Shown piece after piece: positions 2,886 to 24,292 of a DNA stretch of 64,000 nt. The stretch's first letter is position 1. Each line of letters begins with the position of its first letter. The translations under genes and the position numbers were made by a program. The notes beneath the pieces are model-generated. The model had not been told where the DNA came from and did not search any database. It saw only the letters and a program-made list of their open reading frames with translations. The stretch is from a virus: IMG/VR virus record IMGVR_UViG_3300027917_000039. One strand, written 5' to 3'.

Positions 2886-2914
2886 AGTCTACCACACAAA
2901 CGAGTTCAGGTCAA
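2886..2914 (-). promoter_or_regulatory. phage early promoter copy 1: TTGACC-N17-TGGTAGACT (extended -10)
   Basis: Minus-strand read TTTCGCTTGACC-TGAACTCGTTTGTGTGG-TAGACT-TTAGT-ATG. One of 5 near-identical copies in the window. Confidence 0.55.
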
Positions 2915-2920
2915 GCGAAA

Positions 2921-3220
2921 TCACAGGCAAAAGTCGGAATTTGCCTCACCTTCATCCAGCCCTTCCTGGTAGCCTTCAGCATAGCCGTCGTCGAAGCCAC
3001 GATCGTAATCGCCGGACAGATCGGACTCGGTTTCCTCCACACCAGCGTCAAAGCCTTCGTCCCACGCGCGGGTACGTTCGGCTTCAGCGTGATCGAGGCA
3101 TAGATCGTACAAGCTGTCGACCAAAGTCGACAATCGCTTCGGTGTACACGGGGTGCTGCCGAACGCCGCCTTGCACAGTCGCGATACCTTGTCTTTCAGG
3201 TCGGGTGTTGAATCGGACAT
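2921..3220 (-). CDS. hypothetical acidic protein (D/E/G-rich C-terminus)
   Basis: ORF with protein-like composition. Overlaps the 3' end of the upstream paralog gene by about 137 nt, so one of the two models may be wrong. Confidence 0.35.
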   Translation of the reverse strand: MSDSTPDLKDKVSRLCKAAFGSTPCTPKRLSTLVDSLYDLCLDHAEAERTRAWDEGFDAGVEETESDLSGDYDRGFDDGYAEGYQEGLDEGEANSDFCL

Positions 3221-3458
3221 TTCGTTTTCCCTTATCAAGTTCTCGTTGGATGATCTCAGTAATCTCGTAACCCAGCCACGCATCGCGCGGAAACTTTGTA
3301 AGCCACTTTTGTGCAGCGTCCATCGTAGCGAATGGCTTTTCTAGCGGTTCGTCGCCGTCCCTGGCTGGCGTATCCTTGAAATACTCCACGGTCGCCAGAA
3401 AGGTTCCATCGCCCTCCAGCGTGATGCGCTTGTCTTTGACAACTTTGTCATGCCGCAT
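3084..3458 (-). CDS. hypothetical protein, DGTFL-motif family (paralog 1)
   Basis: N-terminus KRITLEGDGTFLATVEYFKD resembles the neighbouring ORF (SIHLQEDGTFLLVIRKDD). The C-terminal third looks low-quality. Confidence 0.4.
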   Translation of the reverse strand: MRHDKVVKDKRITLEGDGTFLATVEYFKDTPARDGDEPLEKPFATMDAAQKWLTKFPRDAWLGYEITEIIQRELDKGKRNVRFNTRPERQGIATVQGGVRQHPVYTEAIVDFGRQLVRSMPRSR

Positions 3459-3676
3459 CAGACGCCTTTCGTAGTTGGATTGAACACAGACCGTGGGGTC
3501 TCACCAAAGTATCCATCGTCGTTCGGAAGCATTGCCGCCGTCTCTTGCGCTTCGACAAACGTCTTCATTGGGATGTTCAGCACCTCGTCATCCTTTCGGA
3601 TGACCAGCAAGAAGGTTCCATCTTCTTGCAGGTGGATGCTCTTGTCGAAGGCGACAGGCTTACACTCGGCGGTCAT
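3458..3676 (-). CDS. hypothetical protein, DGTFL-motif family (paralog 2)
   Basis: 81-aa ORF. Stop overlaps the start of paralog 1 (ATGA). Start chosen at MTAECKP to limit overlap with the ligase. Confidence 0.45.
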   Translation of the reverse strand: MTAECKPVAFDKSIHLQEDGTFLLVIRKDDEVLNIPMKTFVEAQETAAMLPNDDGYFGETPRSVFNPTTKGV

Positions 3677-4751
3677 ATCGGGCTTCCTTGGGGATGCCAT
3701 CATCGGACAACTCCCGGTAGCGGAACTCGATCGTGTCCCCTACCTTGAAATACTTGCCCTGGAAATCGCTTGGCATATCCACGCCTGGATTCTCGTAGGC
3801 GTAACTCTGCATCGCGTCCGTTGCGAACAGTCTTTCCTCGTTGGTGAAGCCTGCCAACTCCAGCCGCTTCCCCTTGTACTCGGTGACGACCGCGCCGATC
3901 AACCCACGCAGCTTCGAGCCCTTGTCAGTCTCGCGACCGGAGACGAAGCCGGTGACGACGCTTTGATCGTCGGTGAAGGGCTTCATCTTCAGGAGCGTGC
4001 CGACCCGCTTGGGCGTCCAGATCGAGCCCGGCTTGCGGAGCATGATGCCCTCGCCGCCCTCATTCAGAACCACGTCCATGAACGCGCCAAGCTGATCCTC
4101 TGCCTCGCTGGCATCGTCGGACAGCCTGTGGTGCTGATGCAGGTAGCACAAGTCACCACCGATGAGACTGCCTTGCAGGTAGTTGATCTCTTGCTCGAAG
4201 GTCAACCCACCAGGGACGTGGACGAACTCTTCCAGCACTCCAGAGTCCGCGCGGCTCTGCACGAACTTCATGATCTCCATTTGGTTGACGTTCAGATGGA
4301 AGTTGGTGTTCTTGATCTCGCCCGGAGCGAAGACTTGTGTCGGGGTGGGTGCCCCGAAGCACGCGAACTGCACGTCTCGCCAGCGGTCGTCTTCGGGCAC
4401 GTCCTTGGCCACAATGGAGCGGAGAGTCTGGAAATTCCCGCGACCGGCAAAGAGTTCGCCGTCCAGAAACATGGCGGGCAGTTGGTTCAGCCACCAGTCG
4501 GGAGCGATGATCGGGTTGCCGTAGCGGCTCCACAGACCAGAAGCAACGGGCTTGATCTTCGCCTTGCGGTCGCCGGTCTTCGGGTCGATCAGGTTTGCCC
4601 ACGGCACGGTGTCTGTCGGGAGCCCACGGCTGACGCCGCCGTCCCAGAAGCACCTCGTGCCGTCCAGCTTTTCACTCACCCACATGCCCGCCGGGCTGTC
4701 TTTGCCCGGCTTGAACGTCTTCGCCAGTTGAAGGAACTCACGCCTCGCCAT
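3660..4751 (-). CDS. lig: ATP-dependent DNA ligase
   Basis: Motif I KLDGTR (adenylation lysine), DGELF motif III, EGIMLRKPGS motif IV, LLKMK motif V. Start taken at MARREFLQ. Confidence 0.8.
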   Translation of the reverse strand: MARREFLQLAKTFKPGKDSPAGMWVSEKLDGTRCFWDGGVSRGLPTDTVPWANLIDPKTGDRKAKIKPVASGLWSRYGNPIIAPDWWLNQLPAMFLDGELFAGRGNFQTLRSIVAKDVPEDDRWRDVQFACFGAPTPTQVFAPGEIKNTNFHLNVNQMEIMKFVQSRADSGVLEEFVHVPGGLTFEQEINYLQGSLIGGDLCYLHQHHRLSDDASEAEDQLGAFMDVVLNEGGEGIMLRKPGSIWTPKRVGTLLKMKPFTDDQSVVTGFVSGRETDKGSKLRGLIGAVVTEYKGKRLELAGFTNEERLFATDAMQSYAYENPGVDMPSDFQGKYFKVGDTIEFRYRELSDDGIPKEARYDRRV

Positions 4752-5127
4752 CTTCGGTCTCCGGTTGTACAAGTGCATGGATCAGAATTTGGTGGCGATC
4801 AGGGTTCGTCCGCCTCACGACTCGGATCGTCACAGGGATGCGACCCTTTTCGCACAGGAAGACGAGTTCTCTCTTCGAGAAACGGTCGAGCGGGATCGCC
4901 GCCGTCCGTACGTTTCCCAGTTTGTTGATCTTCTCCGCCAACGCCTTCACCATCGGACGCAGGTAGAGGGTCTCAATCTCTTCCCCGGTCATCTGTGCGA
5001 TGTCGTTAGACGGGAACGACACAGTGACCGACTGGAGGTGGTCGATGTTGGTCGGTCGACCTTCTACCACCTCTACAGTTAAGTGTACATCCAAAAGCCG
5101 CGAAAGGGAAGGAACTTCTCGAAACAT
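4738..5127 (-). CDS. hypothetical protein
   Basis: 129-aa minus ORF between the ligase and the membrane coiled-coil gene. Confidence 0.4.
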   Translation of the reverse strand: MFREVPSLSRLLDVHLTVEVVEGRPTNIDHLQSVTVSFPSNDIAQMTGEEIETLYLRPMVKALAEKINKLGNVRTAAIPLDRFSKRELVFLCEKGRIPVTIRVVRRTNPDRHQILIHALVQPETEDGEA

Positions 5128-5139
5128 TTCTGTCCTTTC

Positions 5140-5667
5140 TTAGAGCAGGAACGGCATAATCGTTGTTATGACTCTTGCCCGATCCTTCAGTTCAATCAGT
5201 TGATCGAGAAAGTTGTCGGTGGCGCTCTTCAGTGCCTCTTTCTTTTGTCCGGTCTCGATCAATTCCAACGCACGTTCCAATGTGTCGACACGCCACGTCA
5301 GAGACTCATTCTCGTCAATCAACTCGTTGATCTGTTCAACCTGCTCTTCCAGCCGGTCAACCGCTTCGTCGAGCGAGTTCTTCAGGGAGCGATTCTCTTC
5401 CTCAATTATGCTGTACGCTTGCACCACCTTCCTCTCTCGCTCCACCAGCAGCCCGTTCTCAACCGCGAGCATCTTGGTAGCTTCCATTGAGATGTAGGAA
5501 TAGTCCAGGGCTTGCAGAACCTGACGATTCAACTCTTGGACGTGCTCTATGGCGTTCACCCGGCGGTTCCACCTTTCGGCGTTCATCTCAGTTTGCCCGA
5601 CGATGCTGATCAACCCAACACAGAGACCGATCAAGAGCAAGCAAATGAAACCCAGCAATCCACGCAT
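5140..5667 (-). CDS. membrane-anchored coiled-coil protein
   Basis: N-terminal TM (LLGFICLLLIGLCVGLISIV) followed by heptad-rich, E/L-rich sequence. Sits immediately downstream of the sigma factor gene. Confidence 0.45.
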   Translation of the reverse strand: MRGLLGFICLLLIGLCVGLISIVGQTEMNAERWNRRVNAIEHVQELNRQVLQALDYSYISMEATKMLAVENGLLVERERKVVQAYSIIEEENRSLKNSLDEAVDRLEEQVEQINELIDENESLTWRVDTLERALELIETGQKKEALKSATDNFLDQLIELKDRARVITTIMPFLL

Positions 5668-5670
5668 CGT

Positions 5671-6351
5671 TCACCTCGTCAAATCTAAATACTGTTGATA
5701 GAGTCTTTGCTTTCTGCGATGCACCGTGGCGACTCCAATACCAAGGTCATCTGCGAGTTCCTGATAGCCTCTTCCCCAGTTGGCGGGGTCCATCAGTGCG
5801 ATGTCGATCTCGTCTTCCGGTTGAATCTTCGAGAACGCATCGAGTATGTCGCGAACAGCTTCATCGCCAACGTCTTCCGGCATCGTCTGTTCACTGTATT
5901 CGTTTGTCTCGGTGGTTTTATACACGGGCTCTTTATCGTCTCTTATCCTCTGCAACTGAATCGTGTGAGAGGGAGCCATCACGCTGCGATTCTTGTTGAG
6001 CATTTTCTCGATGCTCCACTGCGCACGCGACGTTGCCAGCTTCAAGATACCCCGCTCGCGAAACTTTTCATCTGGGATAGCAGCACAGAGAGCAGTTATC
6101 GCGAGCAAGCCTTCCGCCACCATGTCGTCAATGTACGGCTCTAGCCCGCCGAAGTTCCCAAGATAACGCCCGACCAACAAACTCACACAGCCGCGAAGAG
6201 AGCAGATCAAGTCGTCAGGCTTCTCACCAGCAATGACACACACAGCCTTTTCGTTCAGGTCTTCCTCGCTGAAGCTGATCGCCCCATCGAGCAACTCGTG
6301 ATCGAAGCGTGCGGTGTTTGTGTGGTAGTGCTTCAGGTGGATGTAGTTCAT
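5671..6351 (-). CDS. sigma-70 family RNA polymerase sigma factor
   Basis: Region 2-like DDMVAEGLLAITALCAA...ATSRAQWSIEK and a region 4 HTH YQELADDLGIGVATVHRRKQRLYQQY. Confidence 0.6.
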   Translation of the reverse strand: MNYIHLKHYHTNTARFDHELLDGAISFSEEDLNEKAVCVIAGEKPDDLICSLRGCVSLLVGRYLGNFGGLEPYIDDMVAEGLLAITALCAAIPDEKFRERGILKLATSRAQWSIEKMLNKNRSVMAPSHTIQLQRIRDDKEPVYKTTETNEYSEQTMPEDVGDEAVRDILDAFSKIQPEDEIDIALMDPANWGRGYQELADDLGIGVATVHRRKQRLYQQYLDLTR

Positions 6352-6827
6352 TTCGTGCTCACTACCAGCCAGAATCGGCGAGGCTCAAAGTTGAATTTGT
6401 CTGCCACGTTCATTGAATAGCAGTAGCCGCGAGGGTCGTACACGACGTTGCCATCCCATGCAACCATGTGCCCGCGCCCGTTGGTCGTGTTGATCCCTTC
6501 GATCAGTCCGCGACCCCAAGCAAGCTGCCCAAGAAACTTTGCTTGTGGTTCCTTCCACACGCTGACAGGTTTGCAGCTTTCGTGCGGAGAGGCTTTCGGA
6601 TCGAGAGGGAACGGGACGAACGCGGTATGGCAATGCCGAAAGGCTAGGTCGCAAATCTCTTCCATGCTTGGCACTCGCGGTACATCTTTCCATTCTCCCT
6701 CGAACGGTAGGTTTTCCTCAAACTTCCAATGCTTGAAAATCGAATACACCGCAGCAGGTTCGAGGTTCAACACCATCGCGAGCGACGCATACACACAGCC
6801 GTTGGTCTCTTGCAGTTTCAGTTTCAT
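6348..6827 (-). CDS. papain-like cysteine peptidase (C39-like)
   Basis: QETNGCVYASLAMVL gives the catalytic Cys context of C39 peptidases. GHMVAWDGNVVYDP provides the His and Asp/Asn. Confidence 0.5.
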   Translation of the reverse strand: MKLKLQETNGCVYASLAMVLNLEPAAVYSIFKHWKFEENLPFEGEWKDVPRVPSMEEICDLAFRHCHTAFVPFPLDPKASPHESCKPVSVWKEPQAKFLGQLAWGRGLIEGINTTNGRGHMVAWDGNVVYDPRGYCYSMNVADKFNFEPRRFWLVVSTK

Positions 6828-7501
6828 TGTCCTGTCTCCATGTGTCCGTAGTAGCCCTCAGCCTTGCACACGTCGCAGGTGTACGAACTGTCTCGCTCGT
6901 GGCAGGTACAGCGGGGCGTCATCTGCCCTATCAGGGTTGAGACCACGTTGTCGTAAGGATGCCGTGGAAGCTGGCAATGACCCGCCCGGTTCCAGGGGCG
7001 AGGGATCAGGAACGCCTGCCCGCCAGCCTCGCGAAACTCATCCACGTTCTTGTCTCGGTCGTCGATTAGGATCGCGCCCGGACCGGCGAACACACTCTTG
7101 TCCGCACCGATGAAGAACTTCCTGATCATGTGTCGGAAGTTGGATTTGATCCAATCGAACTTTCCAGCCACACACTCGCTACTGAGGGTCGGGCTAGTGG
7201 CGAAGTAGACATCGCCGACCGATTCCAAGACTTGCAGAAACTGAGGGGCGAGTGGGTAGCACCGGAGGCTTCGCCAGAACTCGTACCCCAGACCGTCCCA
7301 GAAGGTGGTAGCCGAGATAGCTTCCAGCCCTCTATTCTGTCGAACCAAGTTGGTAGCACCAAGAACATCCCAGCCGAATCCGATCGGATAGAACTGCTCG
7401 CCTTCGATCTCGGCTTCATGGAACGCCATCGCGGGCATCACGAAGTCGGTAATGACACCGTCAAGGTCAACAAATATCTTCGGCTTCGTCTTCAAACTCA
7501 T
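6824..7501 (-). CDS. HAD-superfamily 5'(3')-deoxyribonucleotidase-like phosphatase
   Basis: IFVDLDGVITDF (DxDxV/T motif I), ATSPT (motif II), K motif and ILIDDRD (motif IV). The C-terminus carries a Cys/His cluster CTCHERDSSYTCDVC. Confidence 0.55.
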   Translation of the reverse strand: MSLKTKPKIFVDLDGVITDFVMPAMAFHEAEIEGEQFYPIGFGWDVLGATNLVRQNRGLEAISATTFWDGLGYEFWRSLRCYPLAPQFLQVLESVGDVYFATSPTLSSECVAGKFDWIKSNFRHMIRKFFIGADKSVFAGPGAILIDDRDKNVDEFREAGGQAFLIPRPWNRAGHCQLPRHPYDNVVSTLIGQMTPRCTCHERDSSYTCDVCKAEGYYGHMETGQ

Positions 7502-7889
7502 CGAATAAGTCCTGTAGGTCTTGTTCTAGTTCGAGTTGCTCTTCGTCGTATCTCGGCTTCCAGTAGTCCCGCCAGTTCGGTGGAGCGAACAACTTGTCAT
7601 AATCGTCGTCCGACCAGCCGGTGATGATCCAGATGCCCGTCCCGGCGGCTTCCCACTTTGGCCACTTTATCCGTTGAGCACGGGTGAACTCGTAGTCCAA
7701 CGGGTTCTTCAAATCCACCCACCGCTGTCCATGCTTCGGGTGCATGATGTAAATGTCAGGGATTCCCTTCTGAAGTTGGTTGCCGATCATCCTTTCGACA
7801 GTCCAACCCCTCTGTATCAAGTACACAATGAACTTCCGCTGGATGATGGCTTCCGGTCCATTCTTCGAGCGGAATTTCTTCGGGTCCAT
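7467..7889 (-). CDS. VRR-NUC domain nuclease
   Basis: EAIIQRKFIVYLIQRGW...GIPDIYIMH...WVDLKNP...TRAQR fits the VRR-NUC PD-(D/E)xK pattern. Confidence 0.6.
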   Translation of the reverse strand: MDPKKFRSKNGPEAIIQRKFIVYLIQRGWTVERMIGNQLQKGIPDIYIMHPKHGQRWVDLKNPLDYEFTRAQRIKWPKWEAAGTGIWIITGWSDDDYDKLFAPPNWRDYWKPRYDEEQLELEQDLQDLFDEFEDEAEDIC

Positions 7890-8311
7890 CAGACGCCCTC
7901 GTCCATCTCGACCTGCGACGGGTCACAACACTGGTCGTGCCCTGCTGGCTCGGCTGGCGTGTGGGGCACACCGAAATCGGATTGATAGTAATCGCCGATG
8001 ACTCCGAGAACTGACAGCGGCTTCTGTGCGTATTCCTTCTGGAAGCACGTCATGTCGCCGTTCTTCAGAATCGCAGTGTCTTCGTACGGTCCGAGCAGAC
8101 GACGCTGAATCTCGTCAGCCGCGTCCCTTAAAACCGCCACGCACCCACTGAGGGAATGATAGCTGTCCTTGTTCAGCGTCTCCAGAACGATCCTGGTGAT
8201 CGTGTAGTTCACGTCGCCCTGCGTCGCGTCGATCTGGCTGAGCCGTTTCACCAGCCCGTCGATGATCGTGTCCAGTGCCATTCGGTTCGCTATCTTGATA
8301 TAAGGCATCGA
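7889..8311 (-). CDS. hypothetical protein
   Basis: Start set at MPYIKIA, preceded by GGAGAA 7 nt upstream. No recognisable motif. Confidence 0.45.
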   Translation of the reverse strand, partial: SMPYIKIANRMALDTIIDGLVKRLSQIDATQGDVNYTITRIVLETLNKDSYHSLSGCVAVLRDAADEIQRRLLGPYEDTAILKNGDMTCFQKEYAQKPLSVLGVIGDYYQSDFGVPHTPAEPAGHDQCCDPSQVEMDEGV

Positions 8312-8355
8312 GTTTTCTCCAAGTGTCATTGTCAGGTGTGGAAACGAACGGGTTC

Positions 8356-8684
8356 TTAATGTACTCTGGCTCGCCTCCACTTACCGTCGGTGCAGAGTAC
8401 ATAGGGTTCCAGTTTGCCGGTGTGCCAGTTGAGCACCCAGCAGATGGTGGGCTGACCCTCAATGCCGGGGAGTGCCATCGCGTGGGGCTGTCGAAGATCG
8501 GGTTGTACGGAGGTTTGTTGATCCCCGTCAGCCCGCTCGACCTGATCGGTCGTGGTGTCACATCCACCGCATAGACTTGCCCGCGATAGTTCCGCAGGAC
8601 ATACGTTCGCGGGTGATCGGCTAAGACGCTTGCACACCCAGCAAACAAGAACAAACAACCAACGAACCACGGTGGAACCCTCAT
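8356..8684 (-). CDS. putative lipoprotein, frame ambiguous (possible frameshift)
   Basis: MRVPPWFVGCLFLFAGC looks like a signal peptide with lipobox. Downstream, protein-like sequence continues in another frame (…PTICWVLNWHTGKLEPYVLCTDGKWRRARVH, stop at 8356) while the original frame turns P/S-rich and junk-like. Confidence 0.3.
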
Positions 8685-8863
8685 GCTTGCTCCGGCTTCA
8701 GGATGCCCTCAACGGGCAGACATGCTTCGACCAAGGCGTCCTTGTCCTTGCTCTTGGCTTCACGGTACGGCAACACATTCTTCTGCGTCGCCAACGAGAT
8801 CAGTTGGGCTCGCGTGAGTTTCTCCAACTGATGTTTCAGGTTCTTGCGTGCCTTGGCGGTCAT
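8681..8863 (-). CDS. hypothetical small protein
   Basis: 60-aa ORF, tightly packed and stop-start coupled with its neighbours. Confidence 0.35.
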   Translation of the reverse strand: MTAKARKNLKHQLEKLTRAQLISLATQKNVLPYREAKSKDKDALVEACLPVEGILKPEQA

Positions 8864-9255
8864 CGCCCGTTCTCCAGTGCTACGAATTTGGCTTGCTGGT
8901 AGGACGTTGGGATGAACAACACGTCACCCAACGGATGCCCCTCACCAGCAGGACGCCATGAAAGTGTAATCTCTTTGTCATCCCACAACCCGCCGATCGA
9001 CAGCCTCACGCCCGCCGATTCGATCTCCAGTCGGTCGCAGTCGAAGTAGCGAATCACCTCGGTCGGACCTTTACGCTCTCCAAGCGACTCGAAGTCAGAC
9101 TCCCAAACCTTGGTTGGCGTCTGGTCGTCTTCCAGTTTCCTCATCACCTTGAGGGCTGTCTCGCGCTCCCGCTCCAGGTCTCGAATGTATTCCTGTGCGT
9201 ACTTCGGGAGTCGCTTGAACTGCTCTTCGGTTATCTGTGTGTTTGGTGTTCCCAT
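8860..9255 (-). CDS. hypothetical protein
   Basis: 131-aa ORF upstream-coupled to the exonuclease gene. Confidence 0.45.
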   Translation of the reverse strand: MGTPNTQITEEQFKRLPKYAQEYIRDLERERETALKVMRKLEDDQTPTKVWESDFESLGERKGPTEVIRYFDCDRLEIESAGVRLSIGGLWDDKEITLSWRPAGEGHPLGDVLFIPTSYQQAKFVALENGR

Positions 9256-9256
9256 T

Positions 9257-9829: not shown

Positions 9830-9936
9830 TAGGATCTCCAGTGTGCGTGTGTGTTTAGTTATCAGGAGTCAGCGGGTCTGCAAACACCGCCTCGCCGCAT
9901 TGCAGTACGACCGGGCTGACTTGCCCGCTCCCGAAG

Positions 9937-10008
9937 CTGTGGAGGCTGGACTCGAACCAGCAACAGTCCGGTTAACAGCCGGATACTCTACCATTGAGTT
10001 ACTCCACA
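9937..10008 (-). tRNA. tRNA-Asn (anticodon GTT)
   Basis: Hand-folded cloverleaf: acceptor TGTGGAG/CTCCACA, D-arm ACTC-AATGGTA-GAGT, anticodon arm TCCGG-CTGTTAA-CCGGA, T-arm GCTGG-TTCGAGT-CCAGC, discriminator G, U8 A14 G18G19 U33 A37 present. No encoded CCA. Confidence 0.85.
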
Positions 10009-10067: not shown

Positions 10068-10135
10068 GCTGCCCGCCCGGAGTCGAACCGGCGTCCCCGC
10101 TAGGGGTAGGATTATTGCCTGTCACCCGCGAGCAG
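10068..10135 (-). other. degenerate tRNA-like element (good T-arm and acceptor, no canonical anticodon arm)
   Basis: GCCGG-TTCGACT-CCGGG T-arm consensus plus a 7-bp acceptor pairing CTGCTCG/CGGGCAG, but only about 38 nt between them. D and anticodon arms cannot both be formed. Confidence 0.25.
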
Positions 10136-10157: not shown

Positions 10158-10331
10158 TCATGATGTCACCTCATCTTCTGAGTCCCAGCGTTTCTTGATG
10201 TTGACAAGCCTCGTGACTTGAGACTCAGTTAGGTCGACCACTTTCATGTTGCCGATCAATTCGGTGGCGAGGTTCTCTGCTTCAAAGTCGCCTTCGACAA
10301 CTGCCGCGATCAAGATTTCATTGAGCCTCAT
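10158..10331 (-). CDS. hypothetical small protein
   Basis: Start at MRLNE with GAAAGGG 7 nt upstream. The GTG at 10346 lies inside the promoter -10. Confidence 0.4.
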   Translation of the reverse strand: MRLNEILIAAVVEGDFEAENLATELIGNMKVVDLTESQVTRLVNIKKRWDSEDEVTS

Positions 10332-10351
10332 CGTCAACCCTTTCACTATTA

Positions 10352-11046: not shown

Positions 11047-11636
11047 CAGAGGGGCTCCTTCTTGAAGTCTTCAATGTCCACGAAGTCGGTGATCCGGACC
11101 TGTTCCTTGCTGCTGTGCAGCACGTTCTTCCGGTTGCAAATCACGAACTCGCTGCACGTCGCCAGCCCGTTGTAGAAGTCAAACCCCTTCTGCGTGACGT
11201 AGTAGTGCGACTCAGGCTTGCCCTCCGGACGCCCAAGCAGCCCGAAGTGAACGAGGTAGCTGTAGTTCGTGGAGAACCCACGAGCACCCCGCTTGGGCGT
11301 CACCTTTGGGAAGTCGTCAGGGTACTTGAACTCGTGCTTGTGCTTGACCATTGTGAGTTGGCACAGGGAGATCAGAAGGATCACGCTCGCCGTCTCCAGC
11401 GTGTGTCTGTTGGAGCCCTCTGGACGGCGGGTGAGTGGGTCAAAGAACTTGTCGCGGGAACGGAGAACGACGTTTACGAATCGCAACATCTCTTGCACGT
11501 CGTTGCCAAGGTACTCCCACACGGTGTACTGTTTGCCTTCCTCTTTGATGCGGACGAGTTCCTTCGGGATTCCCGCCGTCACAAAGTCCGCGATGCTCAG
11601 CCGTTCCAAGATGTTCATGTTGCTGCCTTTCTGCAA
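11016..11636 (-). CDS. hypothetical protein
   Basis: 206-aa ORF. Upstream intergenic region has TTGACA-N16/17-CATACT and GAAAGG before the ATG. Confidence 0.45.
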   Translation of the reverse strand: MQKGSNMNILERLSIADFVTAGIPKELVRIKEEGKQYTVWEYLGNDVQEMLRFVNVVLRSRDKFFDPLTRRPEGSNRHTLETASVILLISLCQLTMVKHKHEFKYPDDFPKVTPKRGARGFSTNYSYLVHFGLLGRPEGKPESHYYVTQKGFDFYNGLATCSEFVICNRKNVLHSSKEQVRITDFVDIEDFKKEPLWWENYGKDAA

Positions 11637-11681
11637 ATCGAGTTTCGTTCTATCTCAAGTATGACACCAATCTCCACATTG

Positions 11682-11921
11682 TCAAACCATTTTCTCAATT
11701 TCGTGGCATTTCGATGATCCACGTTCAAATTCTCCAAACATTACTTCTACCGGATAACCCTCTTCCCTGGACAATTCCCACCAAACATCCAGACATTCCG
11801 GATGGCACTTGACAGTCATCAGTTCCCCGTCTTCCCAAGTCCCCTTCTCAATCCGTTCACCACACCACCAGCACCTGTGGTCCTTGCGGCATTTCTTGAT
11901 AGTAACGGTGCTCTCTTGCAT
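11682..11921 (-). CDS. small zinc-ribbon protein
   Basis: CRKDHRCWWCGER...VKCHPEC. Start at MQESTV overlaps the polymerase stop (TGATG). Confidence 0.45.
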   Translation of the reverse strand: MQESTVTIKKCRKDHRCWWCGERIEKGTWEDGELMTVKCHPECLDVWWELSREEGYPVEVMFGEFERGSSKCHEIEKMV

Positions 11922-14716: not shown

Positions 14717-15280
14717 CTACCAGTCCATCGAGTCGAAGTAGGCGTCTTCGTAGGCGTCAAGTTCTTCGATCGTCTTGAAGTTTTCATTCCACTTCAGGCG
14801 ACCCAACTTGAGACGCCTCTTGTCACGTTTCTTCTGTGCTCGCTTCGCACACTTCTCGCAGGGTTGGGGCGGTTCGGGCTGCGGGGTGGCGTCAATGCCG
14901 CGAACCTCCAGCGTTTGACTTACCGGGCAATACCCGACTTCAGAGACCATAACCTTGAAGGTTCTGACGACGGTCTTCCCTTTCTCTTCCGACCTGATGT
15001 ACGCAGTGTACTCAGCGGAGGGGTAAGGCTGAGCCAGTTCAGGCGGCACAGGGTAAAACGAGAAAGTAAACTCGTCTGGTCCGGTGCGTTGAAAAGCGCT
15101 CAACTCGCCTCTCGCTGTTAGCATCTGGTGAGGCACCTCAATCGTCAGATCGACGTGCTCGACGAAGTAATCAACATACGTCAAGCATCGGACCAAGTCC
15201 ACCTCTACCTTTCCGCTTTTCCACTCGCTGCCGAAAAGCCCGGAAGCAGCCATCTCAAATCGAACAATAGGTTTCGTCAT
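14717..15280 (-). CDS. hypothetical protein
   Basis: 187-aa ORF with GGAGGG before the ATG. Downstream of promoter copy 3. Confidence 0.45.
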   Translation of the reverse strand: MTKPIVRFEMAASGLFGSEWKSGKVEVDLVRCLTYVDYFVEHVDLTIEVPHQMLTARGELSAFQRTGPDEFTFSFYPVPPELAQPYPSAEYTAYIRSEEKGKTVVRTFKVMVSEVGYCPVSQTLEVRGIDATPQPEPPQPCEKCAKRAQKKRDKRRLKLGRLKWNENFKTIEELDAYEDAYFDSMDW

Positions 15281-16704: not shown

Positions 16705-17058
16705 TTAGGTCTCCATTAACTTGTTGATGATGGTACGAAGATCACAAAGGTTTTCATCCTTGGCTTGGACGACGGCGTCCAAGTTGAGTTCTTCCTTCGG
16801 CGGGCGATACCCGGCAGCCCACAATGCCTCGAACAGATGTTGCAACGGTTTGCCGTGGCTGCGAACATCGAATCTCATGCACGGCTCGATCCTGACGCTT
16901 GGGTCATGCACCTGCATGATCACAGGCTGAGCAACGGAGACGATGTCCCCGCGACGCTCAATGATTCGCAAGTCAAATGTATCCCACGAGATGTCATAGT
17001 CGATGTGGAACGCGAAACCGTCACGGCGATCGCTGGGGTGCCACGGGCTATACGACAT
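16705..17058 (-). CDS. hypothetical protein
   Basis: Start set at MSYSPW to avoid overlap. Confidence 0.4.
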   Translation of the reverse strand: MSYSPWHPSDRRDGFAFHIDYDISWDTFDLRIIERRGDIVSVAQPVIMQVHDPSVRIEPCMRFDVRSHGKPLQHLFEALWAAGYRPPKEELNLDAVVQAKDENLCDLRTIINKLMET

Positions 17059-17368
17059 ACCGAACCTCAACTTTCGTTGTGTCTGGAGGGGCGGGGCGAG
17101 GGATACCGGGCATCGGGATGAGAGTCTCATCCTTCAATCGGATCGCGTTGTGCCAGTTCTTGTCGGTGTATTTCTTCGGGTGCGTCCGCATTTCCCGCTT
17201 CTGCTCTTTGGTCAGAAAGTCCGGGCGAAAGGTGAACGCGCGGATCGTCTCGTGCGTGTGCCCGGTGAACTCTTCTGCGTGAGCCCACAGCCCAAGCACC
17301 TCAAGGTCGAACCGCTGCTGCTCGCGGAGAGCCTCGATCTTCGTCAGTGTTCTTTGAATTTCGTTCAT
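17048..17368 (-). CDS. hypothetical protein (first gene of operon, leaderless-type start)
   Basis: ATG of MNEIQRTL lies 5 nt after the TAGACT -10. Confidence 0.45.
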   Translation of the reverse strand: MNEIQRTLTKIEALREQQRFDLEVLGLWAHAEEFTGHTHETIRAFTFRPDFLTKEQKREMRTHPKKYTDKNWHNAIRLKDETLIPMPGIPRPAPPDTTKVEVRYVV

Positions 17369-17373: not shown

Positions 17374-17402
17374 AGTCTACCACACAGACTGGCTGAAGTC
17401 AA
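17374..17402 (-). promoter_or_regulatory. phage early promoter copy 4: TTGACT-N17-TGGTAGACT
   Basis: Minus-strand read TTTCGACTTGACT-TCAGCCAGTCTGTGTGG-TAGACT-TTAGT-ATG. Confidence 0.55.
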
Positions 17403-17410
17403 GTCGAAAT

Positions 17411-17445
17411 GTGAAAAAGCGGCGGTCCCCATGAGAGACCGCCGC
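17411..17445 (-). terminator. rho-independent terminator (minus strand) directly upstream of promoter copy 4
   Basis: Perfect 9-bp GC stem GCGGCGGTC/GACCGCCGC with a 9-nt loop, followed on the minus strand by TTTTTCACATTT. Confidence 0.55.
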
Positions 17446-17505
17446 CGCACACCAGAGAGGAACTATCGTTACACGCAGCCAACCATACACACCCTCCAAA
17501 GGAAG

Positions 17506-18774
17506 CTAGATAGAAATGTCGTCCATGTCAACGAGCCGATAACGTCTCGGACCCTTCAGTTCGTAGTCACAGCGTAGCTTCACAGGAAGCCGCCATGTGA
17601 TGCCATACTTCTTGTTGACACCGTGAATGAGTTGGGACGGCTCAGTGAACCCGCCCAGCGAATTGTACGAGTACGCATCGCTTGCTGGCCACGCTCCGTT
17701 GATGAGCATTTCACCGTTCATCTCTGTTGTGCTGCCAGGGCGATGGAAGTGACCGCAGCAGTAATACCGCACGGGCACGCCCTGCCTGACATTCTCCAGC
17801 GCCATCATTCGGTGACGCCGCTTCTCCAGTCCGTACCAGGGAATGCCCAGGCTGGACCGAACATCATCGCCGTGGAAGATGTGGAAACCCACGCCGTCGA
17901 TGTCTACGTTGCAAGAGAAGGCGTTGGGGATGCAGAAGTTGATGTTGGGGATGTCTCTGCAATACATCCGAGCCGTCGTGGCAATCAGGTAGTCCCAGTT
18001 GTCGTGGGCACCGTGGTAATCCTTCTTGTTGCTCCGGCGACCGTGGTTGCCCGGCACGCAGACCACATTGATCTGTTCAAAGTACGGGGCAAGATCGCGG
18101 AACATCAGGGCTTGCAACTGCCCGATCGCGTGGCAGTTCTTGAAGCAGTTGCGGAAGTAGGACCGCTGTGCTGCCCCGTGAATCTCACCGCTCGTGTGGT
18201 CGCCGTAGGACAGCACGGTGAGTGAGGGGAACCGGAACTGCGGAGCCAGCGTCTGCTGGGTCCACTTGAGCGTCACGTCGATCAGCCGCTCGGCACGCGC
18301 CATCGCGATGGGGAAGTTGTACATCTCCAACCCACCAGTATCATCGTGCGTGATTACTTGATCGAAGTGACCGTCGGACAGGTGCATGACAAGGTGCTCG
18401 GACATCGTGTCGTCGCCTGGGACGAAGTTCTTGCGAGCGGCTGGCAAAGCTGGAATCGGTTTGATTCGCTCTTCCATCTCATCTTCGATCGCCTTGAACA
18501 AGCCGTGCGTCTTCGCTGCTTGCTGCAACTGACGCTTGGCTAGGTTCCGCTCTTCGCGAAGATGCGCGACTTCGGCTTGCAGCGAGAAGATTTGTCGGTC
18601 TTCATCGCTCACCTCGCACGGGGCTTTCACGTCCCGATGGACCCGCCCACACGCGATGTCGCTGATAACAGAGCGGCTGACTCCAAACTTCTCGCCGATC
18701 TGTTTCTGTGTCAATTCCTTTCGAGCGAGCGCGTCCTTGATGTGCCCGACTTGATCCTTTGCCAGCTTGGTCAT
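17506..18774 (-). CDS. HTH domain fused to calcineurin-like metallophosphoesterase
   Basis: N-terminal HTH LTQKQIGEKFGVSRSVISDIACGR, a coiled-coil linker, then phosphoesterase motifs HLSDGHFD, GDH, GNHGRR, HIFHGDD, GHFH. Confidence 0.6.
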   Translation of the reverse strand: MTKLAKDQVGHIKDALARKELTQKQIGEKFGVSRSVISDIACGRVHRDVKAPCEVSDEDRQIFSLQAEVAHLREERNLAKRQLQQAAKTHGLFKAIEDEMEERIKPIPALPAARKNFVPGDDTMSEHLVMHLSDGHFDQVITHDDTGGLEMYNFPIAMARAERLIDVTLKWTQQTLAPQFRFPSLTVLSYGDHTSGEIHGAAQRSYFRNCFKNCHAIGQLQALMFRDLAPYFEQINVVCVPGNHGRRSNKKDYHGAHDNWDYLIATTARMYCRDIPNINFCIPNAFSCNVDIDGVGFHIFHGDDVRSSLGIPWYGLEKRRHRMMALENVRQGVPVRYYCCGHFHRPGSTTEMNGEMLINGAWPASDAYSYNSLGGFTEPSQLIHGVNKKYGITWRLPVKLRCDYELKGPRRYRLVDMDDISI

Positions 18775-20646
18775 TTAGTCCTCTCCAATGCTCACGGTGT
18801 TGTAGAATGGATGGTTCTCGATGATATAGTCGATAGCATCCTTGAAGTACGTGCCCTCCAGCGTGAAGAGCCTTTCCTTGAGATTGATGTCGGCGAGGTG
18901 TGCTCTCTGCCGTTTCAACTCATCAGGGTTCGTAATCAACTCGACCGACTTGGCAATCAATGCCTGCGGGTCTTCAAAGTTGTTGTACGACATATCAACG
19001 CGGTCGTTGAGGTACATTCCCGCGCGATTGTAGAAGCGATCACCCACCAGCGTCAGGAATGGAATGCCCATCCACAGGGACTCCACTAGGACGTTGTAGC
19101 AACCGAACGGGAATGAGTTGAGAGCAAAGTCATGCTTCTCAGCCTCCCGCATGTAGTCGACATACTCCCACTGCGAATGAACGTACGCATTGGGAAGCAG
19201 GCGGGTCACTTCTCGAATGAACGGAGGCAACGCAGCGTAGCGGTTCAGTCCGGGCGACCCGAAGAGATGAAACTCGTGGGTCGTTTCGGGGTTGACTTGC
19301 AACGCACGCTTGTTGATCTCAGCCAACATGGTGAGCAGCGTGTGGTTGTACTTGTCCGGTCCCCAGACACAGTTGATCCGGACGACGCCGTCGTCAACGT
19401 AGTTGTGCTGTCGCTCGACACTTGGCCACGCAGGCTCTTGTGCCAAGCCGGGGATGAGCACCCGTGTCTCTGAGTAGGCGGCATCGGCATCCTTCTCCAC
19501 CTGTCCGCAGATGAAGTAGTCAATCTCGTTGCCGTCACCCGTCGTGTCTGGGTGCCCGTATCCCACGACTTGTATCGGAGCCATGCGAAAGTTCGACATC
19601 CAGATCGACTCGTCCGACATTCCGATGTCGGGGAAGTAGACCAGTTGGTAGTCGTTCTTCAGCACTTCGTCTGGAATCCGCAACTGCCCTTCACGGGTGA
19701 AGTAGGCGTGGTGAACTTCATCGAAGTAATCTGTCACCATCGTTGACGGCACCAAGTCTGGCGGGTTTGTCCAGATCAGGGTCAACTTGTAGTGCTCGCG
19801 AAGCTGTTCGAGCAACGGACCCTGCGACTTGTACACCGCGTGGTTGCGATGCCACCGCTCGGTGACGATCGCGATCGACTTCGGGTTGGGGTTATTCTCG
19901 AACGGCGGTGCAGTGCCCTTGGATTTGATCCCCTTGTTGATGATGCTCTTTACTCGCCGGACGGCGTTCTGATTGTGGTACGTGCATCCAAAGTACAGAC
20001 CGGACAGGCTCTGATGCGGCGGGACAAACCGCTCGTCCATCAGTTCCAAGTGCCGATAGAAATTCTTCTGGATGTTGAACGTCGGTGACGACAGACCGAG
20101 CATGTAGCTCATGTACCAGAGCGAAGCGAGAGCGGGATCGCAGTCGAACAGTTTCTTCTGGTCGATTTGAATCTCGCAACGCGGGTTGAGCAGTGACATC
20201 ATCTTGCCGACGTTGTTCTCGATGCCAAGCGAGGCGTCGAGTGCGGCATCGGTAGTCCGCATCGAACTGGACGCGAAGATGCTCTGTAAGACGTGCCCCA
20301 ACTGGATCAACTGAATTGCCGATTTTCCAACCGGGTAGAAATCTACGCGCGAGACAGCCATCGAATACGTGAAGCAAAAGTCATTCAGCTTCACGATCGC
20401 AGAGTTGCCGAATCGCATGTAGTGGTGCATCTCGAAGTAATGCAAGAAGTGAACGAAGTCATCCCACAGAGTGACATCGAGGTCCGCGATCTTGCGCATC
20501 GCCTTCCTGACATCGAGGGTCGGGATGTCTTGCTGCGGGTCTTTTGGCCACGCAACACAACACCCGTCGACCTTCTTGGACTTCACTACCTGCCGCTTGC
20601 GGCGGTTACGAGCTAACTCTTTCTCACGCTTCTTCGTTCTTGCCAA
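18775..20646 (-). CDS. GT41-family (OGT-like) glycosyltransferase
   Basis: RMAPIQVVGYGHPDTTGDGNEIDYFICGQVE...YSETRVLIP aligns with the OGT catalytic-region signature RPAPIQ..LGYPGTSG..MDYIITD...YSEKL. Has a basic N-terminal tail. Confidence 0.6.
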   Translation of the reverse strand: MARTKKREKELARNRRKRQVVKSKKVDGCCVAWPKDPQQDIPTLDVRKAMRKIADLDVTLWDDFVHFLHYFEMHHYMRFGNSAIVKLNDFCFTYSMAVSRVDFYPVGKSAIQLIQLGHVLQSIFASSSMRTTDAALDASLGIENNVGKMMSLLNPRCEIQIDQKKLFDCDPALASLWYMSYMLGLSSPTFNIQKNFYRHLELMDERFVPPHQSLSGLYFGCTYHNQNAVRRVKSIINKGIKSKGTAPPFENNPNPKSIAIVTERWHRNHAVYKSQGPLLEQLREHYKLTLIWTNPPDLVPSTMVTDYFDEVHHAYFTREGQLRIPDEVLKNDYQLVYFPDIGMSDESIWMSNFRMAPIQVVGYGHPDTTGDGNEIDYFICGQVEKDADAAYSETRVLIPGLAQEPAWPSVERQHNYVDDGVVRINCVWGPDKYNHTLLTMLAEINKRALQVNPETTHEFHLFGSPGLNRYAALPPFIREVTRLLPNAYVHSQWEYVDYMREAEKHDFALNSFPFGCYNVLVESLWMGIPFLTLVGDRFYNRAGMYLNDRVDMSYNNFEDPQALIAKSVELITNPDELKRQRAHLADINLKERLFTLEGTYFKDAIDYIIENHPFYNTVSIGED

Positions 20647-21808
20647 GAGGCACCTCCACGAGTTTGCCGAACTCGAATTTCAAGAGACCTTTGCATTCAA
20701 TCCCCAGCTTGATGATTTCGTCTCGGATGTCGAGCGATCGCCAGGACGTGGTGCATATGATATAGTCAACGGGGAATTTCTTCAACGCTGTCGGAGAGAC
20801 CATCGGAATCTTCGTGCCGGGCACGCAGAATCCCCATTTCTCTTCGTGGCTGTCAACCACGAGAGTGGTATCCGGCAGCTTGAACTTGTTGATGAACATG
20901 GCGGACTTTCCACCGCCGCCCCACAGCGCGACCCTGTCGGTCGTGTTCACCAACCAGCTACGCACTTCGTCGATCTTGGCTTGAGCCCGCTTGTACTTGA
21001 ACAGGATTTGATCAACCGTCAAACCCTTGGTCCGCTTGGGCTCCAGCTTCGCCATCGCGACGATCACTTCACCACCATACGTGGTGGCTGCGTGAGAGAA
21101 CTCAATCCCGCACGCGCGGAACAGCTTCATCATGCTGAGCACAGTGAAGTGTTGTGGGTGCTCGTACGTCCAGTCTTCGATGCGGCATTTCTTCAATGCC
21201 TCTTGACAGCACGGGACTTCGATGAGCAGGATTGTGTCTTGGGCTCGCTTCTCAGCCATCCGGACAATCGGCTCGATGAACTCGCGCGGATTCTCCATGT
21301 GCTCCAGAAGGTGCCGCATGATGATCACCAACTTACCGCCGTCCAGCGGGATGTGCTGCTTCGGGTCGAAGTGCTCGCGGTAGTATTGGATGCCCAACTC
21401 TTCCGCTCGCTCGACTGCCTCGCACGGGTCGATCGCGATCTTGATCGCGTCGGTGTTGATCCGGTTGAGGAACTCGCAGTCGCCCGCACCGACTTCGATG
21501 ATCAATTCAACGTCTTCGATTTCTTCGACTTGCTTGACCGTTACCTCAACGTGCCTCTGCCAGCCGCTCCCACTATTGTACATGCGACAGCCAGCGGCTG
21601 CGTACGATACGTGGTTCGGATTGAAGTCGATGTTGTGGACGTGCCCGCAGTTTCGGCAGATCGCCAATCGGATTCGGTGGCGTTCCAACGATGCAGACTG
21701 CAACGGGTCGCGCTGCAATGCCACAAGAGACATCGGCTGGCTGCCCATGTCGAACAACACTTCTTGGTCTGTCGATTGACAGGCAGGGCAACATTGGATA
21801 TAACTCAT
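20624..21808 (-). CDS. SAM-dependent C-methyltransferase, TcaB9/TylCIII-like (Zn-ribbon + class I MTase + C-terminal domain)
   Basis: N-terminal CPAC...CRNC zinc ribbon, motif I LIIEVGAGDCEFL, about 390 aa with a three-domain architecture typical of sugar C-methyltransferases. Confidence 0.55.
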   Translation of the reverse strand: MSYIQCCPACQSTDQEVLFDMGSQPMSLVALQRDPLQSASLERHRIRLAICRNCGHVHNIDFNPNHVSYAAAGCRMYNSGSGWQRHVEVTVKQVEEIEDVELIIEVGAGDCEFLNRINTDAIKIAIDPCEAVERAEELGIQYYREHFDPKQHIPLDGGKLVIIMRHLLEHMENPREFIEPIVRMAEKRAQDTILLIEVPCCQEALKKCRIEDWTYEHPQHFTVLSMMKLFRACGIEFSHAATTYGGEVIVAMAKLEPKRTKGLTVDQILFKYKRAQAKIDEVRSWLVNTTDRVALWGGGGKSAMFINKFKLPDTTLVVDSHEEKWGFCVPGTKIPMVSPTALKKFPVDYIICTTSWRSLDIRDEIIKLGIECKGLLKFEFGKLVEVPLGKNEEA

Positions 21809-21969
21809 CGCATCTCCCGGTCTTCAAGTTCAGTGTCAACAATCAGGATCGGTCCCTGACTTGTGTCTTGTACTTCGACGATTGCGTGTTGTACGCCGTC
21901 GATCTCGACGACCACCTCACCGTCATCGCGGCAGAGTTCCAGGTCGTCGAGCAGTTCGCTAAGTAGCAT
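21805..21969 (-). CDS. hypothetical small acidic protein
   Basis: Starts MLLSELLDDL, coupled to the methyltransferase start. Confidence 0.35.
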   Translation of the reverse strand: MLLSELLDDLELCRDDGEVVVEIDGVQHAIVEVQDTSQGPILIVDTELEDREMR

Positions 21970-22342
21970 TTTCCAATTCTCCAAATAATGGGATGACGTA
22001 TACGCCGTAGTCTTCGTGATCACACCACTCTTTGATGTCGATCTCATCTTCCGGACCATGCACCAACAGCTTAGGCAACTTCAAACCATCCAAGGCTGAC
22101 ACCAGCCTGCGAACGTAAAAGAAGCCAAGCGACTTCTCATTCAGCTTGACATCGACAAGTTCACCGGCTTCGGTCGCCAGCACCTGGACTTCGATCGCTT
22201 CGATTCCGTACTCCCGATCCGCCTTCACGGTCAGGTTTTCCAGAATCCACTGAATGCCTTCGTTTGCCGGACACGTCCCGACAGTGTACAAGTCGAGACC
22301 TTCGGGGACCGACAACACACCAACCACTCGCGCGTCACTCAT
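21959..22342 (-). CDS. hypothetical protein
   Basis: Starts MSDARVVGV and overlaps the SNF2 gene stop. Confidence 0.4.
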   Translation of the reverse strand: MSDARVVGVLSVPEGLDLYTVGTCPANEGIQWILENLTVKADREYGIEAIEVQVLATEAGELVDVKLNEKSLGFFYVRRLVSALDGLKLPKLLVHGPEDEIDIKEWCDHEDYGVYVIPLFGELENAT

Positions 22343-24257
22343 CGCACATCTCCTGAAATTCACCAAGCGTCATTTGTTCAAGCCGACGGTTGTCACGCAA
22401 CACGCCGAGAACCTTACGGTCAGTACCAAGATGGAACAGGTCGACAATCGTCGCTCCCTTGTTCTCATCCATTCCCGGTCGGTGGATTCGGTCTTCAGCT
22501 TGCGAGCGAGACTCAGGCATGAAATCGTTCGAGTAGAACACCGCCATGCGAGCCTCAGTCAAGGTCAGTCCCATTCCTCCAGACGCCGGGTGCGCTACAA
22601 ACGCCACCCGCTCTTTCGTCATATCTGCCCAGTAGTCAAGGGGCTTGCACTGCTTCGCAGTGATCTTTGTGCCGTCGGCTGGCATCACTTTCCAGCCGCG
22701 ACCGTCAACCTTCACCACGTCCCAATGCTGCTTGTGGCAGAGGCTGATGATTCTGTCTACCGATCCCTGGAAGCCAGCGAAGATCACGAGACGCCCCTGG
22801 TCTTCGTTCTCTTCCAGCAGATCGCGTATAGCCTGATCCTTCGGCGTGTTGATCTGTTTCGTTTCCCGAACCATGTTCGGAACTTCACCCACACCGTCAC
22901 AATAACTGCACGGTCCGAGCCGCTTCTCGTAATGGTCCAGGTCATCTTGAGCGTCTACGTCGACCTTCTCACCATCGAAGTACCAGTCTTCCTTTTGTCC
23001 TTTTCCCTTGCAGACGGGGCACGAGATGGTGGGTTTCTTCTCGTCCTGCTTCTCGCGATACTGGAACCCGTCGCTCAGTTCACGCAGCCACGTCAATCCT
23101 TGAATCGCGGATATGGCGGATTTGGCCAGCGCTTTAGCCACTCGTTTAAGCGTGGATGTGGGTTCAAGTTCGACGACTCGATAGTTCTTGTCCGGTATGT
23201 CGAGGCAGTCTTTCTTCTTGAGGGTGACGACCAAACCTTCGAGTCGATCGTGAAGGAAGGCGACCTCGTTCTTTGAGGGTACGAAGTCGTGGTTTCCTTC
23301 GCCTCCGCCGAACAGAATAGCGTCTTCATCCATGACATGATTCGCATGATCGGCGTACTCACCGCATATATCACATTTGTTCTCGTCATCTCTCCACGTC
23401 TTTCGTTTCCAGAACTCTCCGGCATCGGTCATCTGCTTCTCGAAGATGGCGAGCCGGAACTCAAATGCCTTGTCGCTTCCTTCCTTGATGAAGCCTGGGT
23501 ATGCGATCTCACACTGTGCCCACCAGTCGACGGGCGATTTGGGCGAGGGCGTGCCGGACATGAGAATCACGTATCCATCCCAGCCATGCTCCCTCCGGAT
23601 CGAATCCGCCAGATGGGCAGCCGCGCGGGTCCGCTTGGCGTTCCACGTCTTGAGCCGGGACGACTCGTCGAAGATCACACCAACGGGCGCAGGTCGTCCC
23701 TTCTCCCACTTCTCGATCTCGATCCTCAGACGGTCGTACGTCATGAGGTTGGGCATTACCTTCAAGCCCCATTTGACAAACTCCCGTTCAACTGCGGCGA
23801 GACCTGACTTGGGGGCAACCCACCACCAGTCAGTGACGCCAGACTTTTCCATGAGTTCGATGGCTGCCAGGGTCTTACCGACGCCCATTTCAGCAGCCCA
23901 GATTTGGTAGTGGTAGGTGAGCCCTTGGTCGGCGAGCATCTTCTGGTGGTCGAACAGCGGGCGGGTGTAGCCGAAGTTTCTCAGCGGCTGCTCCCAATTC
24001 TCGTAGGGGTTGCCGCCCTGCATGTAGTCAAGCTGGAAGTTGTTCCGGCAGCAGTCTTCGACCGACCATATCTTTCGGTTGTCATCAGGTATGAAGCCGT
24101 GCCAGCGGGAGCCTCGCATCGCCTTGATCTCACCCTTCAACGCGAACGGTGACTTCAGGAAGTAGATGCGACTGCCGTCACGCTCTATCGTGGCGGGAAC
24201 CTTGAGCAAGGTTCCTTTCTTTGTCTCTGTGATCAGTTTGATTTCTTCAATCGTCAT
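22335..24257 (-). CDS. SNF2/Rad54-family ATPase (helicase-like) with an inserted DnaJ-type zinc finger
   Basis: Walker A AAEMGVGKT, DExx IFDESSRL, SGTP, helicase C GGMGLTLTEARMAVF...QAEDRIHRPGM. Insertions CDICGE...H..H and CPVCKGKG...CSYCDGVG. Confidence 0.8.
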   Translation of the reverse strand: MTIEEIKLITETKKGTLLKVPATIERDGSRIYFLKSPFALKGEIKAMRGSRWHGFIPDDNRKIWSVEDCCRNNFQLDYMQGGNPYENWEQPLRNFGYTRPLFDHQKMLADQGLTYHYQIWAAEMGVGKTLAAIELMEKSGVTDWWWVAPKSGLAAVEREFVKWGLKVMPNLMTYDRLRIEIEKWEKGRPAPVGVIFDESSRLKTWNAKRTRAAAHLADSIRREHGWDGYVILMSGTPSPKSPVDWWAQCEIAYPGFIKEGSDKAFEFRLAIFEKQMTDAGEFWKRKTWRDDENKCDICGEYADHANHVMDEDAILFGGGEGNHDFVPSKNEVAFLHDRLEGLVVTLKKKDCLDIPDKNYRVVELEPTSTLKRVAKALAKSAISAIQGLTWLRELSDGFQYREKQDEKKPTISCPVCKGKGQKEDWYFDGEKVDVDAQDDLDHYEKRLGPCSYCDGVGEVPNMVRETKQINTPKDQAIRDLLEENEDQGRLVIFAGFQGSVDRIISLCHKQHWDVVKVDGRGWKVMPADGTKITAKQCKPLDYWADMTKERVAFVAHPASGGMGLTLTEARMAVFYSNDFMPESRSQAEDRIHRPGMDENKGATIVDLFHLGTDRKVLGVLRDNRRLEQMTLGEFQEMCDE

Positions 24258-24263
24258 ATCTAA

Positions 24264-24292
24264 AGTCTACCACATTATGCTGTGCAAGTCAA
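24264..24292 (-). promoter_or_regulatory. phage early promoter copy 5: TTGACT-N17-TGGTAGACT
   Basis: Minus-strand read GCATTTGACT-TGCACAGCATAATGTGG-TAGACT-TTAGAT-ATG (SNF2 start). Confidence 0.55.

Follow-up and report, generated by a model that had tools for sequence, protein, structure and literature searches.

A family of at least seven near-consensus promoter sites was found in the 64,000-nucleotide (nt) stretch of viral DNA analysed here (IMG/VR record IMGVR_UViG_3300027917_000039; hereafter the window, to which coordinates refer unless a related locus is named). The sites, P0 to P5 and a further one at 11685, are probably promoters of the host primary-sigma RNA polymerase, with leaderless first genes at P1, P4 and P5. 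The window represents a tailed-phage genome encoding terminase, portal, tape measure and family A DNA polymerase together with an SNF2-type helicase, an SbcD-like exonuclease, a primase and an ATP-dependent ligase. Nearly all of its genes point leftward, with a small rightward island at 27514–31498; replication and nucleotide-metabolism genes make up the block between position 1 and 27.1 kb, and structural genes occupy 31.6–64 kb. A nucleotide search of 20 kb of the window against cultured phage genomes gave no match, and protein searches with the helicase, terminase, ligase and polymerase returned only distant matches (~23–28% identity at best); the terminase was distantly similar to those of Thermus phages. 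The phage is uncultured and siphovirus-like and belongs to a lineage without a cultured relative or a usable annotated promoter set. An identical helicase contig occurs in the assembly ERZ27275805. Related contigs were retrieved via the helicase, polymerase and ligase, and L-numbers (L001, L013, etc.) denote the related loci and contigs that were compared with the window.

Anatomy of the promoter family

A previous sequence-only reading of this DNA had described a family of five promoters on the minus strand. Direct reading confirmed each copy, including the common -35 element TTGACY (TTGACC in two, TTGACT in three), the 17-nt spacer and the -10 element TAGACT in five of five. The pattern TTGAC-N18-TAGACT had exactly these five matches in the window, all on the minus strand. 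With one mismatch allowed, the count rose to seven, whereas dinucleotide shuffles gave an expectation of 0.87 and never yielded as many as seven; a chance origin of the sites was thus rejected, the matches lying far above the shuffle expectation. A two-block weight matrix was also built from the relatives alone and then run over the window. It returned six sites above 14 bits (24292, 17402, 2914, 11685, 10380 and 81), compared with 0.095 per shuffled window, while 15324 scored 10.2 bits. The sites at 11658–11685 and 53–81 were new, so that all five original copies stand but the family comprises at least seven members (Table 1). All seven lie on the minus strand, with the direction of the genes, and within 53–24292.

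The -35 element of the seven sites reads TTGACC, TTGACT or TTGACA, and the -10 element TAGACT (five sites), TATACT (one) or CATACT (one), with a spacer of 17 nt in six cases and 16 nt in one. TG at -15/-14 was present in four sites (2914, 11685, 17402 and 24292) and not in 81, 10380 and 15324. The extended -10 TG and the following TTAG, which had been described as common to all five copies, were therefore retained for P1, P4 and P5 only: 10380 carries GGG at the TGn position and TAAT after the -10 element, and 15324 carries AGT and TTTA, respectively. Information per position was high at -35 and from -17 to -7, moderate in the discriminator and the start region, and near zero in the spacer. 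Information content and an alignment of all seven sites agreed in showing conservation that is bipartite around a variable spacer, with no single contiguous block. This bipartite pattern points to a target of a sigma-70-family holoenzyme, unlike the promoters of single-subunit phage polymerases or typical operators. Promoters of a T7-like or N4-like phage polymerase were accordingly rejected, given the bipartite motif, the variable spacer and the lack of a polymerase domain in the scanned open reading frames (ORFs), among which the late region is partly represented.

Many of the relatives carry the same type of promoter on the gene strand, with the pattern TTGACA, 16–17 nt ending in TGG or TGTGG, TATACT or TATAAT, T-N-A-R-R-T, and A. 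None of the first seven related loci contained the exact TAGACT pattern; the family became visible in them when the -10 element was relaxed to TAnnnT. For the exact variant TGGTAGACTTTAG, a single match was obtained among 2.9 million viral contigs (L056). This contig also shows a leaderless layout at 9952–9990 (TTGACA-N17-TAGACT-TTAGTC-ATG). A core-promoter scan of the window and the relatives, scored on the -35 and extended -10 elements only with downstream positions excluded, gave 45 non-redundant matches, and 44 of them lay on the sense strand. Taken at the level of sequence, the window sites display every feature of a primary-sigma promoter. Recognition by host sigma-70, as the sequence-only reading had suggested, would agree with the full sigma-70-family anatomy, the with-gene direction, the intergenic placement and the occurrence of the same type in relatives. 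The host polymerase (sigma-70/sigma-A type) would then read these promoters across the leftward replication and nucleotide-metabolism block, adding transcription starts within a long array of genes of the same direction.

Table 1. Promoters, first cistrons and terminator in the presumed early region of the window (aa, amino acids; SD, Shine-Dalgarno sequence)
Feature	Coordinates	Strand	Description	Score or stability
P0	53..81	-	TTGACT-N17-TATACT	16.7 bits
P1	2886..2914	-	TTGACC-N17(..TGTGG)-TAGACT-TTAGT-ATG	28.6 bits
P1 first cistron, predicted leaderless	2605..2880	-	91-aa hydrophobic protein; ATG 2880, 5 nt after -10, without SD	
P2	10352..10380	-	TTGACC-N17-TAGACT-TAATA-GTG; no true TGn	20.7 bits
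Additional promoter (11685)	11658..11685	-	TTGACA-N16(TGT)-CATACT-TGAGAT-A	25.6 bits
P3	15296..15324	-	TTGACT-N17-TAGACT-TTTACTGGAGGGACA-ATG; without TG; weakest family member	10.2 bits
P4	17374..17402	-	TTGACT-N17(..TGTGG)-TAGACT-TTAGT-ATG	31.6 bits
P4 first cistron, predicted leaderless	17048..17368	-	106-aa soluble protein, no assigned function; ATG 17368, 5 nt after -10	
Intrinsic terminator	17414..17448	-	13-bp GC stem and U run, just upstream of P4	-28.2 kcal/mol, z = -5.4
P5	24264..24292	-	TTGACT-N17(..TGTGG)-TAGACT-TTAGAT-ATG	32.5 bits
P5 first cistron, predicted leaderless	22335..24257	-	640-aa SNF2/DEAD-type helicase; ATG 24257, 6 nt after -10	

Predicted leaderless starts and their conservation

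The proposal that in three copies the ATG follows the -10 element within 5–6 nt and without an SD was borne out, with spacings of 5, 5 and 6 nt at 2880, 17368 and 24257. Counted from the end of the -10 element, the ATG begins at the sixth base in P1 and P4 and at the seventh in P5. E. coli RNA polymerase favours initiation about 7 bases past the -10 element, at a purine that follows a pyrimidine, and at P1, P4 and P5 a T followed by an A occupies the expected start position. Since the A of the ATG thus falls where the polymerase normally starts, the mRNA is expected to begin with AUG and to be translated without an SD. No GGAG-like or other SD motif was found upstream of these three ATGs. The first T of the -10 element lies 11–12 nt from the ATG in all three cases, a distance that corresponds to a published in silico signature of bacterial leaderless genes (PMC3160421).

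The reading frames agree with the predicted starts. At P5, the TAG within the -10 element is an in-frame stop ahead of the helicase ATG, which makes a start of this ORF further upstream impossible. Homologues begin at the same residues: the helicase N-termini are MTIEEIKLI (window), MTIENIRLI (L003), MEELKLI (L004) and MIESIKLV (L058); the P4 protein aligned with its L001 homologue from residue 1, and the P1 protein with its L013 and L012 homologues from residue 3–10 (L013: residue 3). Among the 45 core-promoter matches, 12 were followed after 5–6 nt by an ATG that opens an ORF of 59–640 codons, whereas such an ATG follows 1.4% of the sense-strand TAnnnT hexamers (binomial P ~1e-12). Leaderless initiation at P1, P4 and P5 would therefore fit the spacing, the missing SD, the conserved N-termini of homologues and the lineage-wide excess of ATGs. 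An SD-like motif was present near the candidate start of 65 of the 77 window ORFs, indicating that SD-led initiation is the norm and that the three leaderless starts are exceptions at promoter-proximal genes.

The remaining four promoters (P0, P2, P3 and 11685) are followed by SD-like motifs, and their transcripts would carry leaders of ~9 to 33 nt. At P0, the ATG (37–35) sits 15 nt after the -10 element, giving a predicted leader of ~9 nt (AGGTACAGG); the gene behind it is methyltransferase-like (VFADPPDN) and continues past the left end of the window. Two start candidates were seen at P2, whose first ORF comprises 57–62 aa: a GTG at 10346, 5 nt after the -10 element, and an ATG at 10331 behind AAAGGG. 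A leader of ~15 nt to the ATG is most likely here, and a leaderless GUG less likely. The P3 leader (~9 nt) begins at the SD GGAGGG and leads to the ATG at 15280 of a 187-aa ORF, while the 11658–11685 site, missed in the sequence-only reading, has a predicted leader of ~33 nt to the ATG at 11618.

Comparison of matching positions showed that the promoter type is stable in the lineage, while single sites come and go and can be leaderless in one relative and SD-led in another. Upstream of the helicase, L004 and L064 carry TTGACA-N16-TATAAT-TGAAGT-ATG, and L058 and L059 carry TTGACA-N17-TATACT-TGAGATA-ATG; in L001/L002, L003, L060 and L071 this position had no promoter but either a short leader or an upstream gene that overlaps. 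P4 is kept in L001/L002 upstream of the homologue, in the leaderless layout. P1 is kept in L013/L014 but drives a 14-nt SD leader there, and no promoter precedes the P1 gene in L011 and L012. A missing motif upstream of homologous operons, which had been named beforehand as evidence against the promoter family, was thus encountered in some relatives and not in others. Apart from the promoters, the helicase homologues of L003 (10001–12676) and L004 (10001–12512) were longer than that of the window (2.5–2.7 kb against 1.9 kb), which suggests an element inserted within the gene, perhaps an intein or a homing endonuclease.

Alternative readings and transcriptional organisation

Several observations argue against host primary-sigma promoters with leaderless first genes. 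The transcription start sites are predicted from spacing alone, and at P1 and P4 the A lies one base short of the usual optimum, so that initiation two bases further on, at the G, would drop the AUG. The sigma specificity of the host and its capacity for leaderless translation are assumptions, and the G at the third -10 position of all five original copies is without explanation. Some orthologous genes lack the promoter (the helicase in L001–L003, the P1 gene in L011 and L012). Furthermore, the family scan covered roughly two thirds of the called ORFs, most of the remainder being late-region ORFs, and many small ORFs without a recognisable domain might hide a regulator.

It is unlikely, though worth weighing, that the promoters are real while translation of the three genes does not use leaderless messages, initiation occurring instead on read-through transcripts or from slightly shifted starts by a non-SD route (e.g., an unstructured A/U-rich start region). 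No terminator lies ahead of P1 or P5, making read-through transcripts with internal ATGs likely; moreover, the 5-nt spacing at P1 and P4 is one below the modal value, and the same genes can use SD leaders in relatives (L013, L001). The excess of ATGs 5–6 nt after the -10 element (12/45 vs 1.4%) would, however, be hard to explain on these terms unless a 5′-terminal AUG matters, and the three ATGs are not preceded by any SD-like motif.

We consider it quite improbable that a phage-encoded factor (a regulator, sigma or appropriator) recognises the uniform TGTGG-TAGACT-TTAG block. Such a factor would suit the G at the third -10 position of the five original copies, where most sites in relatives read TATACT or TATAAT, the lineage-wide conservation of the discriminator T-N-A-R-R-T, and the many early ORFs with no assigned function. 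Each conserved position, however, is a known polymerase or sigma contact, and the lineage consensus is simply TTGACA-N16/17-TGnTATAAT. The phage regulator that the sequence-only reading had placed on conserved flanks is unsupported: conservation ends at the RNA polymerase contacts, and the spacer and the upstream flank vary. In the alignment of the seven copies there was no conserved block upstream of -35 and no common palindrome or operator beyond the polymerase footprint, and no sigma, RNA polymerase, helix-turn-helix or other regulator domain was detected in the scanned ORFs, which covered most of the early region and the larger ORFs of the late region.

Stoperators of cluster A mycobacteriophages are short asymmetric repressor sites of one orientation that lie in short intergenic gaps and overlap a TTGACA-like sequence. 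That the window sites are primarily of this type is hardly credible and was rejected: the single orientation, the short intergenic gaps and CTTGACCTGA, common to P1 and P2, would be in keeping with it, but TTGAC is never conserved alone, being always paired with a -10 element at 16–17 nt, only seven copies exist, and the scanned ORFs yielded neither a repressor nor an integrase.

The proposed division of the presumed early region into discrete operons that each open with a small protein held only in part. The terminator at 17414–17448 was the only one that precedes any family member, and the segment from 27.1 to 24.3 kb, comprising a ParB-like gene and three ORFs, contained no family promoter. 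The first ORFs encode 91, 57–62, 187, 106 and 640 aa, so that the description as small is wrong at least for the helicase. P1, P2 and P5 occupy gaps of 39–44 nt directly behind an upstream stop codon (40 nt following the stop at 2921 for P1; 39 nt following the stop at 24297 for P5), and the upstream stop codon falls within the spacer of P3 and within the -35 element of the 11685 site. As only one promoter, P4, lies behind a terminator, the others probably boost read-through transcripts; the sites would thus act as internal booster promoters on a read-through background rather than as boundaries of insulated operons.

Two of these units contain further features. A possible modification module lies 3′ of P1 (1–2755, minus strand), with a Stf0-type sulfotransferase-like protein (1790–2755), a widely conserved 332-aa ORF (795–1793) and a GNAT acetyltransferase (283–798). 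The P2 transcription unit includes a tRNA-Asn(GTT) at 9936–10008 (minus strand), the sole Rfam match. Just upstream of it, at ~10068–10134 (minus strand), we noticed a tRNA-like element that neither ARAGORN nor Rfam called; its T-arm (GGTTCGACTCCGG) is canonical, with a 9-bp closing stem.

No family promoter was found by the matrix scan of 27–64 kb, and late transcription must therefore use a different signal. The rightward primase operon is preceded by an apparent extended -10 element without -35, TGcTACAAT, at ~27470–27478. The divergent gap between the ParB-like gene (26072–27124, leftward) and the primase gene (27514–30264, rightward) contains long palindromes, GGCGGAGTTT...AAACTCCGCC. Complete palindromes at ~27245–27300 and ~27340–27395 fold at z = -4.1 and -3.4, and more copies of the palindrome arm GGCGGAGTT occur at ~27080–27110 and ~27170–27180. 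The palindromes of 27080–27514 might act as parS-like sites or operators, or form an origin. In the structural block, a very strong intrinsic terminator (54860–54915, minus strand; -32 kcal/mol, z = -5.0) stands behind a 462-aa ORF at 54936–56324.

Host, implications and comparison with known systems

A profile search with the ligase retrieved 19 genome loci, mostly from metagenome-assembled genomes (MAGs) of Planctomycetota (Pirellulales, Thermoguttaceae), and some of these lay on contigs of Mb size. Homologues of the ligase, polymerase, exonuclease and helicase were syntenic on a 2.6-Mb contig and on a 4.2-Mb chromosome of Planctomycetota. L038, L041, L052 and L053, Planctomycetota MAG contigs of 1–4 Mb, carry syntenic modules ~50% identical to the window phage, and the 4.2-Mb chromosome holds two copies of the module; these modules look like integrated relatives. 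The GC-rich Planctomycetota clade showed no promoters of this type, and a closer, promoter-bearing relative (L043) is a 15.8-kb scaffold binned as Chloroflexi. The syntenic loci point to Planctomycetota as host for the wider phage group; for the window phage they give no more than a hint, set against the missing promoters of that clade and the Chloroflexi bin of L043.

The outcome is a promoter map, validated by comparison with relatives, of a phage lineage without a cultured relative. This map shows fast promoter turnover between close relatives, a given gene being leaderless in one and SD-led in another, and the promoter/leaderless signature could narrow the host and supply portable strong promoters. 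One may further ask whether the fixed spacing from -10 to AUG and the conserved discriminator (T-N-A-R-R-T) amount to a deliberate, clade-wide leaderless strategy, or whether leaderless messages keep key early genes (helicase, small membrane protein) translated during a shutdown of SD-dependent translation in the host; we regard either as possible but doubtful. If a clade strategy existed, the hosts, in view of the distant relatives in Planctomycetota chromosomes, would translate mRNAs with a 5′-terminal AUG efficiently. To our knowledge, such translation has not been described in Planctomycetota, and a literature search on leaderless transcription in Planctomycetes found nothing relevant.

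The promoter set neatly exemplifies an arrangement already known and reveals no new mechanism. As in early promoters of lytic phages (T5 classes, lambda PL/PR, T7 A1–A3, SPP1 PE1–PE5), near-consensus -35 and -10 elements are separated by a 17-nt spacer, and several copies are placed along polycistronic replication genes with no need for a phage polymerase. Five early polycistronic units are described for SPP1 (PMC6316719), and in T5 every promoter class is reported to use the sigma-70 holoenzyme (PMC7472727). In contrast to these early promoters, the window sites have very short leaders or none, the -10 element is uniformly TAGACT, and the sites are known from sequence alone. Reliance on an extended -10 TG is also seen in the middle and late promoters of Thermus phage P23-45, which are used by the host holoenzyme, lack a -35 element and depend on phage factors, among them the protein gp39 and phage polymerases (PMC3950348). 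The window sites share the extended -10 TG with P23-45 but differ in their strong -35 element, and neither a gp39-like nor a polymerase gene was detected. Lambda cI transcribed from PRM and mycobacteriophage transcripts are examples of leaderless mRNA, and the layout at P1, P4 and P5 resembles that of lambda cI/PRM and of genes of Actinobacteria, Deinococcus-Thermus and their phages. Phage transcripts have been remarked to be often leaderless (PMC5312081), and a -10 element ~12 nt before the start codon, the missing SD and a predicted 5′-terminal AUG match the signature by which leaderless genes have been called genome-wide (PMC3160421). Unlike those leaderless systems, the window promoters combine this layout with a consensus -35 element, the layout is confined to promoter-proximal cistrons, and most genes retain an SD.

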